NCBI GenBank assembly: GCA_043816965.1
Contig: JBDRHK010000026.1
Location: forward strand, 1 to 24,635
From: Candidatus Iainarchaeum sp.
GTDB taxonomy: Archaea > Iainarchaeota > Iainarchaeia > Iainarchaeales > JAFCCJ01
DNA: 24,635 nt
Direction of reading: 5' to 3'
Shown here: in pieces, positions 17,758 to 24,286 of the stretch
How the letters are laid out: every line of letters begins with the position of its first letter
Numbering within the stretch: position 1 is the first letter of the stretch
The notes under the pieces: generated by a model
The model's input: the letters and a program-made list of their open reading frames with translations, nothing else
The model's database searches: none
What the model was told of the DNA's origin: nothing
Position numbers and translations under genes: made by a program

Positions 17758-17867
17758 CGGACCCGGGCGGATTTGAACCGCCGACCTACTGCTAACACCC
17801 CTTTTTCATTAACCATTTTGAAAAAGGTTAGAAGGCAGTTGCCCTATCCAGACTAGGCTACGGGTCC
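17758..17867 (-). tRNA. tRNA-Arg(UCU) with 35-nt intron at 37/38 (17794-17828)
   Basis: Acceptor GGACCCG/CGGGTCC-G, anticodon arm ACTGC-CT-TCT-A|A-GCAGT, T arm GGCGG-TTCAAAT-CCGCC, intron stem CCTTTTTCA/TGAAAAAGG. No encoded CCA. Upstream TTTAAATA. Confidence 0.95.
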
Positions 17868-20674: not shown

Positions 20675-21358
20675 TTATTTTTTATTCCTTAATCGTTCCA
20701 GCACTTTTTCACTTTCCAGTTCCCGCAAGGCATCTGCCGCAATCCATCTTGCCGCCTTTGAATCAATTTCACTGATTTCTTTCCCAACCTTAACTGCTTT
20801 TTTGTTCAGCGCAAGATTCCTTTTCCCAATTTGCCTCAGCGCCCAGTTCACAGCCTTCTTCACAAAATTCCTTTCATCGGTTGCTTCCCTCTTAATTACC
20901 GGAAAAAACTTCTCAAATTTTTTATCACCTGCTTCCTTATCATGCACTGAAAGAGTTGCCATCAGAACAAAACCCGCGCGCTTAACAAATTCCTCCCCTC
21001 TCTCACTCCATTCAAAAGCTTTTGCATATGCAAATTCAGTTTTGTCGAAAAGATTGCTGCAGCACTGGTCCACTATATCCCAGGAATCAAAATCCCTAAC
21101 CCATTTTTCCATCAGTTTCTCAGTAACCTTCTCAGGCTCACCAATAAAAGTCGCGAGCATCCTTGCCTCATGAATTCCGGTTTCCCATAATTCCTCGGCA
21201 AGTTTTTGGTCCTTGCCAATCTCTTTTCCAAAGGGCCTTAACACATAGAGGGAAATTCCCAATGCGTTTTTGGTCTCAATCCCAAAACGCGCCATCCCTT
21301 CTTTGTTCTTTTTGGAGCCCATTTTTTTGAGTTTTTTGATAACTTCATCAGCATTCAT
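20675..21358 (-). CDS. DNA alkylation repair enzyme (AlkD-like)
   Basis: LAEELW...HEARMLA, FDSWDIVD, FVKRAG, DERNFVKKAVNWALRQIGKR. Confidence 0.9.
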   Translation of the reverse strand: MNADEVIKKLKKMGSKKNKEGMARFGIETKNALGISLYVLRPFGKEIGKDQKLAEELWETGIHEARMLATFIGEPEKVTEKLMEKWVRDFDSWDIVDQCCSNLFDKTEFAYAKAFEWSERGEEFVKRAGFVLMATLSVHDKEAGDKKFEKFFPVIKREATDERNFVKKAVNWALRQIGKRNLALNKKAVKVGKEISEIDSKAARWIAADALRELESEKVLERLRNKK

Positions 21359-21361
21359 TCA

Positions 21362-22903
21362 TCAAATTCTTCTAACAACACCCTTAAAAGCGTCAACCTC
21401 AACCATGTCCCCGTCTTTAAGCAGCGAGGTGGCGTTTTTCGTGCCAATGATCCCCGGAATTCCAAACTCGCGGGAAACAATCGCAGCATGGCATGTGATT
21501 CCTCCCTCATCCGTAACTATTGCCCCCGCTTTCTCAATAATTTCAGTCAAATCAATAGTAGTCATAGGCGCAACAAGTATATCTCCTCTGTTGAATTTAA
21601 CCCCATCCTGCTTGGTTTTGATTATTTTGACTGTTCCCACCACTTTTCCCTTGTTTGCTATGCTGCCACTAATTGTCTCAATTTCTTCAACCTCTTTTTT
21701 AGTGGCCCTTTCAATCGCTTCCCTATCATCAGCTGAAAAAACTGACATCTTCCTGTTGAAAAGGAAAATCCCATACCATTCCAGCCTCTGATGCGCTAAA
21801 TTTTTGTCAATTTCAGCGCCATCAAAAAAAGAATCTATCTCCGGCTTTATGAAAAAATGAAATTCCTGAATTGTTATATCAAACAGCCTGCAGATTTCCT
21901 CAACCAGGTTCAGGGCATAATACTCCGCCGCAAAAGAGGCCTCAAGCTGGAATGTGTGTAGGTAAAGCAGTTCCTGGAGCGCTTCCATATAAACCAGAAG
22001 CTCGCCATCAACCCCAAGTTCCTTAACAATCGCATTAAAATCCTTATTTCTCGTGGCCTTATTTTCCTCCAGATCACTTAACTTTTTTTCACAGTCCTGC
22101 CCAACAGCCTTTTTAATTCTCGCAATATAATCCTCGGCGCTCATTGCTTCCCTTGCCCAGGTAAATCTGGTGCTCCAGCCATATTCCTTAACAAGGAAAT
22201 CCAATTCGTGGGAAATCTCAGAAAATTTTTCCCTAATTTTTGCCTCAATCTCTTTTTCATTCTCTTCAAAAACTTTTATTAACTTCTCATCATTTTTAAC
22301 CATGACAGCTATTTCAAGAATTTTTCGGCTCTCCAGCACAACCAAAGAATCATCTGAAGGAAAAACAACCTTGTCAAGGTATCTGTCAAACTCCGTCTCC
22401 ATGCCTCTTGATTTCAGCAATTCTAAAAGTTTTTCTGAAACCAGTGATTCAAGGACACGGTTGAAATTGTGCTTCAGCTGGATAAAAGAAACAGAATCAA
22501 CCAATGCTTGCCAGTAGTAATCAAACAGATACCGCAAAGCCTGTTTGTCCATTCCCCTAATATTCTTTCTCCCACCAATCTCCTTTGCCTTCCTTATCAG
22601 TTCCTCACTGTGGTGCCTGAGGCGCCTGTTTATTTCAGTAAAAGCAGATGGATTCTGTGAGCCCAATTCTCCCAAATCATTCCTAATTCTCTTGTAATCT
22701 GCAGGGCTCCAATAATAGCTTTCCCCTATTTTTTTGAAGTTCTCAAACTCAAAACGAAATGAGGTCAGATTCTCCAGCCTTTCAGCAGGATGTTGGCAAT
22801 CAATAACCAAGTAAGACCATAGAAGCGGATATTCGCCATGGCGTGTAAGGAAAACTTCCCAATCAACCTTGCGGTCCAGATCTAGAACCTGTTCCAAATC
22901 CAT
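21362..22903 (-). CDS. PEP-utilising enzyme mobile (phospho-His swivel) domain protein with helical N-terminal region
   Basis: C-terminal GDILVAPMTT...AIVTDEGGITCHAAIVSREFGIP...VEVDA. No ATP-grasp domain seen. Confidence 0.85.
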   Translation of the reverse strand: MDLEQVLDLDRKVDWEVFLTRHGEYPLLWSYLVIDCQHPAERLENLTSFRFEFENFKKIGESYYWSPADYKRIRNDLGELGSQNPSAFTEINRRLRHHSEELIRKAKEIGGRKNIRGMDKQALRYLFDYYWQALVDSVSFIQLKHNFNRVLESLVSEKLLELLKSRGMETEFDRYLDKVVFPSDDSLVVLESRKILEIAVMVKNDEKLIKVFEENEKEIEAKIREKFSEISHELDFLVKEYGWSTRFTWAREAMSAEDYIARIKKAVGQDCEKKLSDLEENKATRNKDFNAIVKELGVDGELLVYMEALQELLYLHTFQLEASFAAEYYALNLVEEICRLFDITIQEFHFFIKPEIDSFFDGAEIDKNLAHQRLEWYGIFLFNRKMSVFSADDREAIERATKKEVEEIETISGSIANKGKVVGTVKIIKTKQDGVKFNRGDILVAPMTTIDLTEIIEKAGAIVTDEGGITCHAAIVSREFGIPGIIGTKNATSLLKDGDMVEVDAFKGVVRRI

Positions 22904-22946
22904 AAAACCATAAATAGCTCAAAGTGTTTTTATTTTAAACAAATAA

Positions 22947-22967
22947 TGCGGGAGGGAGGACTCGAAC
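22947..22967 (-). pseudogene. Isolated tRNA 3' fragment (T loop to discriminator, Leu-like), possible att site
   Basis: Minus strand reads GTTCGAGT-CCTCC-CTCCCGC-A, 18/21 identical to the 3' end of tRNA-Leu at 24266-24286. No 5' portion nearby. Confidence 0.8.
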
Positions 22968-22971
22968 TTTC

Positions 22972-23121
22972 ACCACCTCCAATAGAGAATTTTTTCTTAG
23001 GACTCTGATTTTCTCGGCTTAAACCTTTGCACGTTTAATTCCTAATTTTGGTGCAAAGAATTTAATGCCTCCAAAATCAGCAGAGACGTCCACGAAAAAA
23101 TTCATTCTTTTTGGAGGTGGT
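22972..23121. repeat. ~150-nt rod-like imperfect hairpin
   Basis: Nested stems: 22972-82/23111-21 (11 bp), 22987-96/23094-103 (10 bp), GGAC/GTCC, 23005-12/23073-80 (8 bp), GGC/GCC, TTAAA/TTTAA, 23025-32/23051-58 (8 bp). Confidence 0.9.
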
Positions 23122-23124
23122 TTA

Positions 23125-23256
23125 ATGAAAAGTTTTTTCGATTTTCAGATTCCCTCAAGGGAAGAGATTGAATCTTGTCTGAAATCTTCAAAAAATCCAG
23201 AGATTCTTACGGATAGGGATTTTTGGATTTTGAGGGAGTTTGGAGGGGAGTTTTAA
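23125..23256 (+). CDS. Micro-ORF A, 43 aa (MKSFFDFQIPSREE...REFGGEF)
   Basis: Strong GGAGGTGG RBS, and TAATG stop/start coupling to the next ORF. Confidence 0.55.
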   Translation: MKSFFDFQIPSREEIESCLKSSKNPEILTDRDFWILREFGGEF

Positions 23257-23408: not shown

Positions 23409-23431
23409 AATCCGCACCGGAAATCCACTCT

Positions 23432-23449
23432 AGAAAGCCTTTATCTATT
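23432..23449 (+). promoter_or_regulatory. BRE/TATA-like promoter for the LAGLIDADG-tRNA-Leu unit
   Basis: AGAAAGCCTTTATCTATT shares AGAAAGCCTTTA with the leuS promoter and lies ~28 nt before ATG 23468. Confidence 0.6.
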
Positions 23450-23467
23450 GAAAAAGAAAAAATATGT

Positions 23468-24238
23468 ATGGAATTTACTGAAAAGCATGCGGAGCTGGTT
23501 GGGTTGCATTTTGGGGACGGCAGCTTAATAAGACGAAAAGGGACAGAAAGGCTGAGATTCCAGTTGAGGGGAGACGCAATTTCAGATAGGGCGCATTATG
23601 AGAATTTTATCATCCCTCTCTGCAATGAACTGATAGGCTTTCCCATACTTGGAAGACCGGTAACAACGACTTATTACAAAAAGCGCAACTGTTTTGGAGT
23701 TGCAGTCGAGAGTGCTCAATTGGCAGGATTCTTTGAAAAACTTGGCGTAAAGGTGGGAAGAAAGGAGGAACTGGAGATCCCTGAGTGGATAAAAAATGAT
23801 GAAAATTTCTCCAAGGCATTTGTAAGGGGCTTGTTTGATACAGACGGGTGCATTTATTATGGCACTAACCATACTGCAAAGAGCAACTTACATATTGTTG
23901 GGAGAATAATTATCACCTCCACCTCAAAAAACCTGATGCATGGCGTTTCAGCAATCCTGTCGAAAATAAGGCTAAAGCATTCAATCAAAGAACGCAGAAA
24001 GACCAATGGCGAAAAAAATGTTTTCGTTGTCGAGGTCCAAAGGCCCCATGAAAAAAAATTTATGTCATTGATAGGCTCCCATAACCAAAAACATCTGAAT
24101 AAATTCAAAATAGCCCAAATATTCGGTTTTTGCCCTCCCTATACAACCCCGCTGGAACGGAGGAAAATATTAAAAGGTGAATTGAATCCATTGTCTTTAT
24201 ACGCGAGGGTACCGAAGCGGTCTAACGGGCAAGGTTGA
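23468..24238 (+). CDS. Free-standing two-motif LAGLIDADG (intein/DOD-like) homing endonuclease, 256 aa, overlapping tRNA-Leu
   Basis: Motif 1 AELVGLHFGDGSL, block KVGRK...IPEWI, motif 2 AFVRGLFDTDGCI. No intein splicing termini. Stop TGA at 24236-24238 lies in the tRNA anticodon loop. Confidence 0.9.
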   Translation: MEFTEKHAELVGLHFGDGSLIRRKGTERLRFQLRGDAISDRAHYENFIIPLCNELIGFPILGRPVTTTYYKKRNCFGVAVESAQLAGFFEKLGVKVGRKEELEIPEWIKNDENFSKAFVRGLFDTDGCIYYGTNHTAKSNLHIVGRIIITSTSKNLMHGVSAILSKIRLKHSIKERRKTNGEKNVFVVEVQRPHEKKFMSLIGSHNQKHLNKFKIAQIFGFCPPYTTPLERRKILKGELNPLSLYARVPKRSNGQG

Positions 24239-24286
24239 GGGCCTTGTGGCTTAGTGCCTTCGGGGGTTCGAATCCTCCCCCTCGCA
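24203..24286 (+). tRNA. tRNA-Leu(GAG), 84 nt, long variable arm, no intron, no encoded CCA
   Basis: Acceptor GCGAGGG/CCCTCGC-A, anticodon arm CAAGG-TT-GAG-GG-CCTTG, variable arm GGC-TTAGT-GCC, T arm GGGGG-TTCGAAT-CCTCC. Confidence 0.97.

Follow-up and report, generated by a model that had tools for sequence, protein, structure and literature searches.

How can a gene for a homing endonuclease lie flush against a tRNA gene, and even read into it, outside any intron or intein? By the usual account, homing endonuclease genes insert harmlessly into essential genes only with the help of a self-splicing intron or an intein. The window analyzed here, the entire 24.6-kb contig C26 of a 1.34-Mb, 86% complete genome (G000) whose nearest named relatives are Candidatus Iainarchaeum and the Diapherotrites (DPANN archaea), encodes a LAGLIDADG endonuclease (P0001) as a stand-alone open reading frame (ORF) with its own ATG and B recognition element (BRE)/TATA, located outside any intron or intein and running directly into tRNA-Leu(GAG). 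From this locus and its relatives, we propose that the gene is probably a homing-endonuclease cassette that stands alone and is specialised for the 5' end of tRNA-Leu(GAG). Comparisons within the genus are with G001, the sole same-genus genome compared.

The initial annotation described the ORF as borrowing its C-terminus and stop codon from the tRNA, and each element of that description is borne out. The ORF enters tRNA-Leu(GAG) in frame at nucleotide 1 and overlaps it by 36 nucleotides (nt); its last 11 residues (ARVPKRSNGQG) are tRNA nucleotides 1-33, and its UGA stop (24236-24238) is formed by U33-G34-A35, with the anticodon GAG at 24237-24239. The conserved part of the protein ends at Y245 (24202), and codons 246-256 together with the stop are tRNA sequence. 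The tRNA at 24203-24286 is recognized by Rfam (49.9 bits, gathering score 29) and by ARAGORN, which finds no other Leu gene with a GAG anticodon in the assembly. The stretch from the ORF body to the tRNA holds no T-rich terminator, and in this compact genome the 3' end of the tRNA abuts the stop codon of the following gene.

Among the 21 co-oriented homologue rows at tRNA-Leu(GAG/AAG), one of which duplicates another genome, the ORF enters the tRNA in 19, by 1 to 313 nt, and 7 of these 19 stop at U33-N34-A35 (TGA for GAG, TAA for AAG). In the protein alignment, orthologue tails have the sequence A-(R/G)-V-P..., a translation of the acceptor stem. The G001 orthologue is shifted in frame by two additional nucleotides and stops at a TAG in the D-arm. 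Thus the length and sequence of the tRNA-encoded tail are not conserved, and the flush junction is. Because 19 of 21 co-oriented Leu rows also enter the tRNA, the overlap is, on this comparative evidence, not due to chance. Given an overlap as variable as 1 to 313 nt, selection does not maintain any one stop arrangement, and the use of the tRNA as C-terminus and stop appears to be a recurrent by-product of flush insertion, not a selected device: an endonuclease ORF without its own stop reads into the tRNA until a chance stop is met, here U33-G34-A35.

P0001 (256 aa) matches Pfam PF14528 (LAGLIDADG_3) with an E-value of 8.4e-11 and 42.4 bits (cut-off 22.5), and both catalytic motifs, GDG (D17) and DTDG (D126), are intact, the two aspartates showing no variation across 48 aligned homologues. 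The AlphaFold model derived from the homologue alignment (mean predicted local distance difference test score, pLDDT, 95.8; predicted template-modelling score, pTM, 0.92) has a pseudo-dimeric alpha-beta-beta-alpha-beta-beta-alpha fold and models the tail poorly, with a mean pLDDT of 82 for residues 241-250 and 49 for residues 251-256 (<50 for 254-256). In a Foldseek search, the best matches of known structure are I-Tsp061I (2dch; E 7.9e-10; TM-score 0.76 on target), I-DmoI (2vs7; E 7.2e-9) and the PI-PfuI intein endonuclease (1dq3; E 1.8e-8), and sequence identity to the solved enzymes is 17-21%. Together, these features show P0001 to be a predicted single-chain, two-motif LAGLIDADG enzyme of the I-DmoI/I-Tsp061I type. 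It resembles I-DmoI and I-Tsp061I, which reside in rRNA introns, and the PI-PfuI intein in fold, in having two motifs and in carrying an acidic residue in each; it differs in standing alone at a tRNA edge with its own promoter and in its C-terminal extension of ~45 residues. Residues 207-247 of this extension form three extra C-terminal helices beyond the I-DmoI core, which have no family assignment.

Compared with its G001 orthologue (73% amino-acid identity), the endonuclease gene has a ratio of nonsynonymous to synonymous substitution rates (dN/dS) of 0.126 over 245 codons, with a dS of 1.37, and is by this estimate under purifying selection; the neighboring HIT gene gives a dN/dS of 0.06 and a dS of 1.2. 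We also considered whether the ORF belongs to a spliced element. The tRNA is uninterrupted from end to end (ARAGORN, Rfam) and the ORF has no host-protein (extein) context, so the element is neither an intron nor an intein; an ORF of a bulge-helix-bulge intron was likewise rejected, as there are no flanking exons and the entire tRNA-Leu(GAG) lies 3' of codon 245. On both the acidic motifs and the lack of intron or intein features, Pfam, the alignment, ARAGORN and Rfam agree with the initial annotation.

To what extent is the tie to tRNA genes a property of the family? As had been predicted, the 3' ends of homologues associate with tRNAs. Scoring a tRNA in either orientation from -150 to +100 nt of the ORF stop, with ORFs of at least 150 codons at the same loci as controls, we find a tRNA at the 3' end of 78 of 107 relatives in all sets pooled, against 32 of 371 control ORFs. 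The figures are 6/8 ORFs and 2/17 controls in the genome itself, 18/27 and 12/70 in 60 same-order genomes, and 54/72 and 18/284 at the 80 best GTDB loci; eight GTDB loci and two order loci without a usable frame end or match were left out, and the sets include two duplicates (L088, which shares its genome with L009, and L158, a copy identical to L012). G000 holds eight P0001-like genes at E <1e-5. When stop-to-stop frames of at least 200 codons are counted genome-wide, with tRNA calls confirmed by Rfam, 14 of 934 have a tRNA in that position, six of them among the eight P0001-like genes and 8 among the other 926 (Fisher 9e-11). Two members are co-oriented and lie 5' of their tRNA, at Leu-GAG (36 nt overlap) and Arg-TCG (26-nt gap); the other four of the six converge on tRNA 3' ends, at Ile-GAU, Thr-GGU, Gly-CCC and Val-GAC, with overlaps of 20-76 nt.

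The same arrangement is found in orthologues of 40-74% identity across several DPANN phyla, the family ranging over Iainarchaeota, Woesearchaeota, Pacearchaeota, Nanoarchaeota and Aenigmarchaeota. Its distribution is patchy, with matches in 39 of 61 genomes and 0 to 8 in each. In a FastTree phylogeny of 106 rows, tRNA identity changes 29 times, compared with 49-58 times in 500 label shuffles; because related sequences share labels, this count demonstrates clustering and not independent events. Each clade of the tree tracks one tRNA, and one clade tracks a thiolase gene. The Leu(GAG/AAG) clade (24 rows, support 100) unites this gene with members from Iainarchaeota, Woesearchaeota, Pacearchaeota and Nanoarchaeota; further clades correspond to Arg(TCG) (30 rows), to Leu(UAA), and to the convergent Thr(GGU) and Ile(GAU) members, and the thiolase clade is without a tRNA.

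Comparison of six paralogous G000 loci with G001 reveals how these genes sit in their targets. Collinear DNA of G001 cleanly lacks four of the cassettes, those at tRNA-Arg(TCG), tRNA-Ile, tRNA-Val and the thiolase site; at the Gly locus G001 is shorter by ~900 nt and its cassette is probably missing, and the Thr locus of G001 has 594 unrelated nucleotides where the cassette sits in G000. In filled alleles, relics of 5-11 nt of the host gene terminus remain on the far side of the insert. At Arg(TCG), the empty allele reads TATA, 8 nt, tRNA; in the filled allele this TATA is followed by 5 nt left over from the tRNA start, a 940-nt cassette and the entire tRNA. The cassette thus lies exactly between the old TATA and tRNA nucleotide 1, a fit to the promoter-tRNA junction that the initial annotation had predicted as the target. 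At the Val locus, a 7-nt relic of the tRNA 3' end lies beyond a 1270-nt insert, and at the Ile locus a 15-nt spacer has given way to an insert that stops 2 nt short of the tRNA. A search for relics across the far sides of all loci returned mostly noise, the significant cases being 20 nt at L145 (E 5e-7), 13 nt at L155 and 14 nt at L023.

The tRNA-less member on contig C103 follows the same plan at a protein-coding gene. Its host is a thiolase gene (Pfam Thiolase_N), within whose opening codons it is inserted. Upstream, the endonuclease frame is fused to a relic of eight codons from the start of the thiolase gene, and the last nucleotides of the cassette recreate the thiolase start, overlapping the endonuclease stop. 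Four members from four families (the other three from three other families of the order) all lie 5' of the same thiolase gene, with the stop overlapping or abutting the start (1 nt apart in one). Three of the four retain the relic, comprising the first 7-8 codons, and the fourth is a truncated copy. These alleles show that members of the family, as judged by their junctions, insert a few nucleotides from the end of a conserved gene and carry a replacement terminus; since the 3' end of the cassette is a replacement copy of the terminus, the host gene stays whole. On the same reading of the alignments, cassettes come and go at exact sites.

Which promoter, then, serves the tRNA? The initial annotation took the BRE/TATA before the ATG to be the only clear promoter, which is refuted by a higher-scoring box, ATTAAAAG, at -34 of the tRNA. 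An 8-nt matrix was trained on positions -50 to -18 of the other tRNAs of G000 (31), with tRNA-Leu(GAG) held out; its consensus is TTTAAAAG, starting mostly at -34 to -40. On this matrix ATTAAAAG (24169-24176) scores 7.9-8.2, above 21 of the 31 training tRNAs and at a level reached by 214 of 20000 random genome windows, and it is the top site on the + strand between 22900 and 24300. The box before the endonuclease ATG, TTTATCTA, scores below 5 on the same tRNA-trained matrix. The endonuclease TATA starts 28 nt 5' of the ATG, so the endonuclease mRNA is probably leaderless. ATTAAAAG lies in conserved K-I-L-K codons, 12 codons before the junction, where nearly all co-oriented Leu loci carry [C/T/A]TTAAAA at -31 to -38. 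Across the 51 co-oriented loci with an ORF that reaches the tRNA, 29 score at least 6, against 52 of 255 control windows placed further 5' in these ORFs (medians 6.2 and 3.6). A search of sequencing runs for the locus sequence retrieved two DNA runs (6-7% of sampled words) and no RNA run.

Decayed copies point to the same box. Other families of the order supplied 29 tRNA-Leu loci, of which seven are Leu(GAG), and five of these seven have an ordinary promoter and no endonuclease trace. The remaining two hold remnants: L228 (G023) joins a scrap of residues 31-44 to residues 218-256 (tblastn E 2.7e-10), and L247 (G036) is reduced to roughly the final 20 codons. Both remnants, spanning the last 20-40 codons, preserve the K-I-L-K codons and with them the TATA box. 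Because of the score of ATTAAAAG, its recurrence in relatives and these two TATA-keeping stubs, an internal tRNA promoter is the more likely reading of the sequence.

Taken together, a mechanism can be proposed in which insertion pushed the old promoter of the tRNA away and the tRNA would now be transcribed mainly from the TATA in the last 12 codons of the endonuclease, to which read-through from the endonuclease promoter may add. The enzyme would cut cassette-free tRNA-Leu(GAG) alleles at the spacer/tRNA junction, and the cassette would spread by repair copying, of which the relics and replacement termini in relatives would be indirect signs. A further proposal, which we regard as less likely than not, is that cassettes capture their hosts through the promoter: by displacing the native tRNA promoter and supplying the sole well-placed TATA they would block clean deletion, DPANN tRNA promoters would often be fossil C-termini, and RNase P, acting on read-through transcripts, would cut the stop from the nuclease mRNA and so hold down expression of a dangerous enzyme. 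If the host cannot delete a cassette cleanly, decay would stop at a promoter-bearing 3' stub, as seen in two genomes.

The initial annotation had envisaged a splicing-free homing element living in the 5' leader of a pre-tRNA. Its free-standing, tRNA-tied nature stands, and the leader is not supported, given the TATA within the ORF and the convergent paralogues. In its strict form, the leader model holds that the tRNA has no promoter of its own, that the endonuclease mRNA is the pre-tRNA leader, and that RNase P frees the tRNA while stripping the stop, which would make the element both harmless and self-limiting. Several observations fit this model: the ORF's own stop is missing in 19/21 co-oriented tRNA-Leu rows, no T-rich terminator separates ORF body and tRNA, the Arg(TCG) cassette lies between the old TATA and the tRNA, and the stop-start overlap or abutment at thiolase and Hsp70 is as in co-transcribed genes. 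The family may indeed tolerate or use co-transcription, as the Arg(TCG) cassette and the overlapping stop and start codons at protein-gene targets suggest. However, the TATA at -34 scores like other G000 tRNA promoters, recurs across phyla and outlasts deletion of the gene; as it recurs and survives such deletion, removal of the leader is not needed for harmlessness, and the earlier argument from 5' processing becomes superfluous with a TATA at normal distance inside the ORF and kept in two stubs. Moreover, 4 of the 6 tRNA-linked G000 paralogues converge on tRNA 3' ends and, together with the members at thiolase and Hsp70 starts, cannot be in a pre-tRNA leader, and the overlap varies from 1 to 313 nt. 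We therefore consider a strict 5' leader mechanism unlikely as the main route.

A second alternative, which we rate as slightly more doubtful again, is that P0001 is a domesticated, immobile DNA-binding protein resembling WhiA that serves its host, for instance by binding or regulating the neighboring tRNA gene. WhiA, as usually described, lacks the catalytic acidic residues. P0001 shares with it the LAGLIDADG fold, a helical C-terminal extension (here three helices, residues 207-247), a free-standing gene and purifying selection, and domestication would accord with the dN/dS of 0.126 maintained over a divergence with dS >1 and with the synteny kept in the genus. In contrast to WhiA, P0001 keeps its catalytic aspartates, the pair being invariant in all 48 homologues, and a Pfam search gave no PF14527 (WhiA) or helix-turn-helix (HTH) match at E-values up to 1. 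The family is also patchy (39/61 genomes), with same-genus empty sites for paralogues and with internally deleted and truncated copies. Chance juxtaposition, in which an ordinary gene of a compact genome lost its stop and ran into an adjoining tRNA, might draw on the contact of the tRNA 3' end with the next stop codon and is nevertheless highly improbable, as the arrangement recurs in 40-74% identical orthologues from several DPANN phyla and the link to tRNAs is far above background.

The proposal of a homing cassette at the tRNA-Leu(GAG) 5' terminus must also be set against the history of the locus itself. G000 and G001 are collinear around tRNA-Leu(GAG) with the endonuclease gene in both, and the cassette is, judging from this collinearity, older than the split between them. 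G001 has an extra 190-codon gene between tRNA-Leu(GAG) and the HIT gene. A metagenome scan with the downstream HIT protein gave 56 loci (best identity 56%), none with tRNA-Leu(GAG) or the endonuclease beside HIT. Empty alleles were found in G001 for paralogues and not for tRNA-Leu(GAG). Homing at the promoter-tRNA junction is accordingly supported for the family, and by analogy and from the decayed copies it may be extended to tRNA-Leu(GAG).

Several points weigh against this interpretation. No empty allele of the tRNA-Leu(GAG) locus was found, both genus genomes being filled, and the dS of the endonuclease equals that of its neighbor, so the gene looks vertically inherited and long-lived here; a purely selfish gene fixed in a lineage would be expected to decay. 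Without an outgroup, a filled or empty site does not reveal whether a cassette was gained or lost. Filled and empty alleles of tRNA-Arg(TCG) share their first 21 nt exactly, so that filled alleles would have no evident means of escaping the cut. As for the internal promoter, the score threshold is also reached in control windows (52/255), an AT-rich genome can hardly encode K-I-L-K without a TATA-like motif, and convergent paralogues, which need no such promoter, carry a similar string. Lastly, a candidate tRNA relic at the left edge of the cassette (22947-22967) is inverted relative to the tRNA and weak alone (blastn-short E 0.15 within the locus).

Table 1 Features of the tRNA-Leu(GAG) cassette in the window, and copies of its upstream module on other G000 contigs.
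Feature	Coordinates	Strand	Basis or remark
Inverted relic, 21 nt, like the tRNA-Leu(GAG) 3' end	22947-22967	-	Resembles acceptor 3' strand and T-arm; tentative
Long hairpin, 5' part of ~290-nt module	22968-23121	+	Folding; eight genome copies
Small ORF of 43 codons inside module	23125-23256	+	Translation; coding-like substitutions among copies
Conserved box (CGCACCGGAAAYC...)	23413-23431	+	Directly 5' of endonuclease BRE/TATA; alignment of paralogous cassettes
Putative BRE/TATA-like endonuclease promoter	23432-23447	+	Sequence; kept in G001
Two-motif LAGLIDADG ORF, 256 codons	23468-24238	+	ATG 23468, TGA 24236-24238
TATA-like box ATTAAAAG for the tRNA	24169-24176	+	34 nt 5' of tRNA nucleotide 1; matrix score
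tRNA-Leu(GAG), intact, without intron	24203-24286	+	ARAGORN and Rfam
ORF stop TGA (tRNA U33-G34-A35)	24236-24238	+	Sequence, ARAGORN and ORF frame
Module copy	C5:8318-8613		
Module copy	C86:7709-8004		
Module copy	C25:6407-6702		
Module copy	C15:57706-58002		
Module copy	C15:897-1189		
Module copy	C66:228-523		
Module copy	C7:9767-10066		

Upstream of the endonuclease, the unit common to G000 and G001 starts at 22968 (Table 1). It opens with a module extending to ~23260 whose eight G000 copies are 74-83% identical, six of them preceding a LAGLIDADG gene. The 150-nt hairpin of the module folds with -56.2 kcal/mol (z -7.6; 0/200 shuffles fold as well), and its 5' arm, CACCACCTCC, pairs with a Shine-Dalgarno-like GGAGGTG before the 43-codon ORF; both arms change together in two copies when compared by eye, and these changes look compensatory. 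The hairpin matches no Rfam family, and the 43-codon ORF has no Pfam match. The box and BRE/TATA that follow (23413-23447) are common to paralogous cassettes that are only ~30% identical as proteins. Solo copies of the ~35-nt pre-promoter box occur in G001 (C43:10915-10950, C45:28900-28930, C41:21102-21134 and C10:6233-6265) and may either mark where cassettes were lost or represent a regulatory site scattered through the genome.

The candidate relic just outside this unit agrees with the reverse complement of the tRNA-Leu(GAG) 3' end at 18 of 21 positions for the G000 tRNA and at 19 of 21 for that of G001 (manual count). As acceptor stems read the same from either gene end, it is conceivable, as pure speculation, that the cassette was first at the tRNA 3' end and was copied to the 5' end via the 7-nt acceptor sequence. 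To the left of the unit, window positions 20700-22967 (~2.27 kb, with a 227-codon ORF and a 513-codon ORF resembling phosphoenolpyruvate (PEP)-utilising enzymes) are replaced by 445 nt in G001; the boundary of this replacement is the left edge of the cassette unit.

The tRNA genes themselves vary between the two genomes. tRNA-Leu(GAG) has a 31-nt intron in G001 (L009, 2238-2351) and none in G000, and tRNA-Arg(TCG) has an 18-nt intron in G000 (L002) and none in G001 (C41). A manual count over the first 38 positions of tRNA-Leu(GAG) gives 11 differences between the G000 and G001 copies, and three acceptor-stem pairs are altered on both sides. As far as this alignment goes, the divergence is unusually fast within one genus, and it falls at the predicted target site. 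Downstream of many G000 tRNAs lie a small GC-rich hairpin and a conserved tail (ACGG-CTATCT-CCGT...ACACGA type), as 3' of tRNA-Arg(TCT) in the window (17758-17867, - strand) and of tRNAs on C4, C22, C25, C31, C40, C66 and C81, and a reverse-complementary string (...CGTGTCAAC...) precedes three G000 tRNAs (C19, C70 and C90). These elements may act as a signal for processing or termination, or may be the sequences through which split or permuted tRNA genes pair.

A Pfam search of G000 finds 33 LAGLIDADG_3 stretches in 1.34 Mb. Judged by open-frame length, the genes concerned comprise roughly a dozen inteins and ~13 free-standing genes, an endonuclease-element load that is exceptional for so small a genome. 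The intein-bearing genes have open frames of 518-1649 codons and include an EF-2-like (C42) and an IscU-like (C36) gene; the C36 match had been taken as a candidate free-standing gene and turned out to be an intein. Among the more distant free-standing members, one on C66 reads into tRNA-Leu(CAG), one on C71 ends 2 nt before the Hsp70 start, and one on C31 ends against tRNA pieces. At the last locus (L254, C31:1098-1378), the stop of a LAGLIDADG/HTH gene abuts a T-arm and acceptor 3' strand, followed after 4 nt by an acceptor 5' strand, a D-arm and an anticodon-like arm, an order that looks permuted; there is a weak sub-threshold Y-RNA-like Rfam match and no ARAGORN call, and a tRNA with a very large intron follows. 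Archaeal-type members also occur on contigs labelled Falkowbacteria, Patescibacteria and Aminicenantes (L107, L135 and L166), which are either mis-binned DPANN sequences or cross-domain transfers; the ORF ends at a tRNA in L107 and L166, and no tRNA is called at L135.

Stand-alone endonuclease genes beside tRNA genes have a likeness in SegB, a GIY-YIG enzyme of T-even phages associated with 'intronless homing'. The genes described here differ from it in encoding LAGLIDADG proteins, in residing in cellular DPANN genomes, in keeping to one tRNA per clade and in having an ORF that lies flush with the tRNA and reads into it. One study reports that SegB cleaves inside tRNA genes, that the association of segB with tRNA genes is widespread, and that no tRNA isotype is preferred (PMC13096335). 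Mitochondrial endonuclease ORFs at Phlebia radiata atp6 and cox2 and Allomyces macrogynus atp6 bring an alternative terminus (PMC4019555). The logic is the same, a mobile ORF at the end of a host gene whose duplicate or foreign terminus preserves the gene; the fungal cases concern protein C-termini in organelles, in contrast to tRNAs at either end and protein 5' starts in archaeal chromosomes, and here the promoter of the host gene lies inside the endonuclease coding sequence. In the full-text literature, in which subscription journals are mostly uncovered so that a prior report is possible, we found no account of free-standing archaeal LAGLIDADG genes flanking tRNAs.

To our knowledge, the known exception to the need for an intron or intein is that of the phage Seg/Mob genes. 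The family described here would represent a third route, in which a large cellular family docks on the terminal nucleotides of tRNA or housekeeping genes and brings a replacement terminus, to which co-oriented members would add a promoter. If the enzymes are active, the family would constitute a natural collection of meganucleases with specificities for tRNA genes, and it would help to explain the variable introns, flanks and acceptor stems at the tRNA loci of these small genomes.

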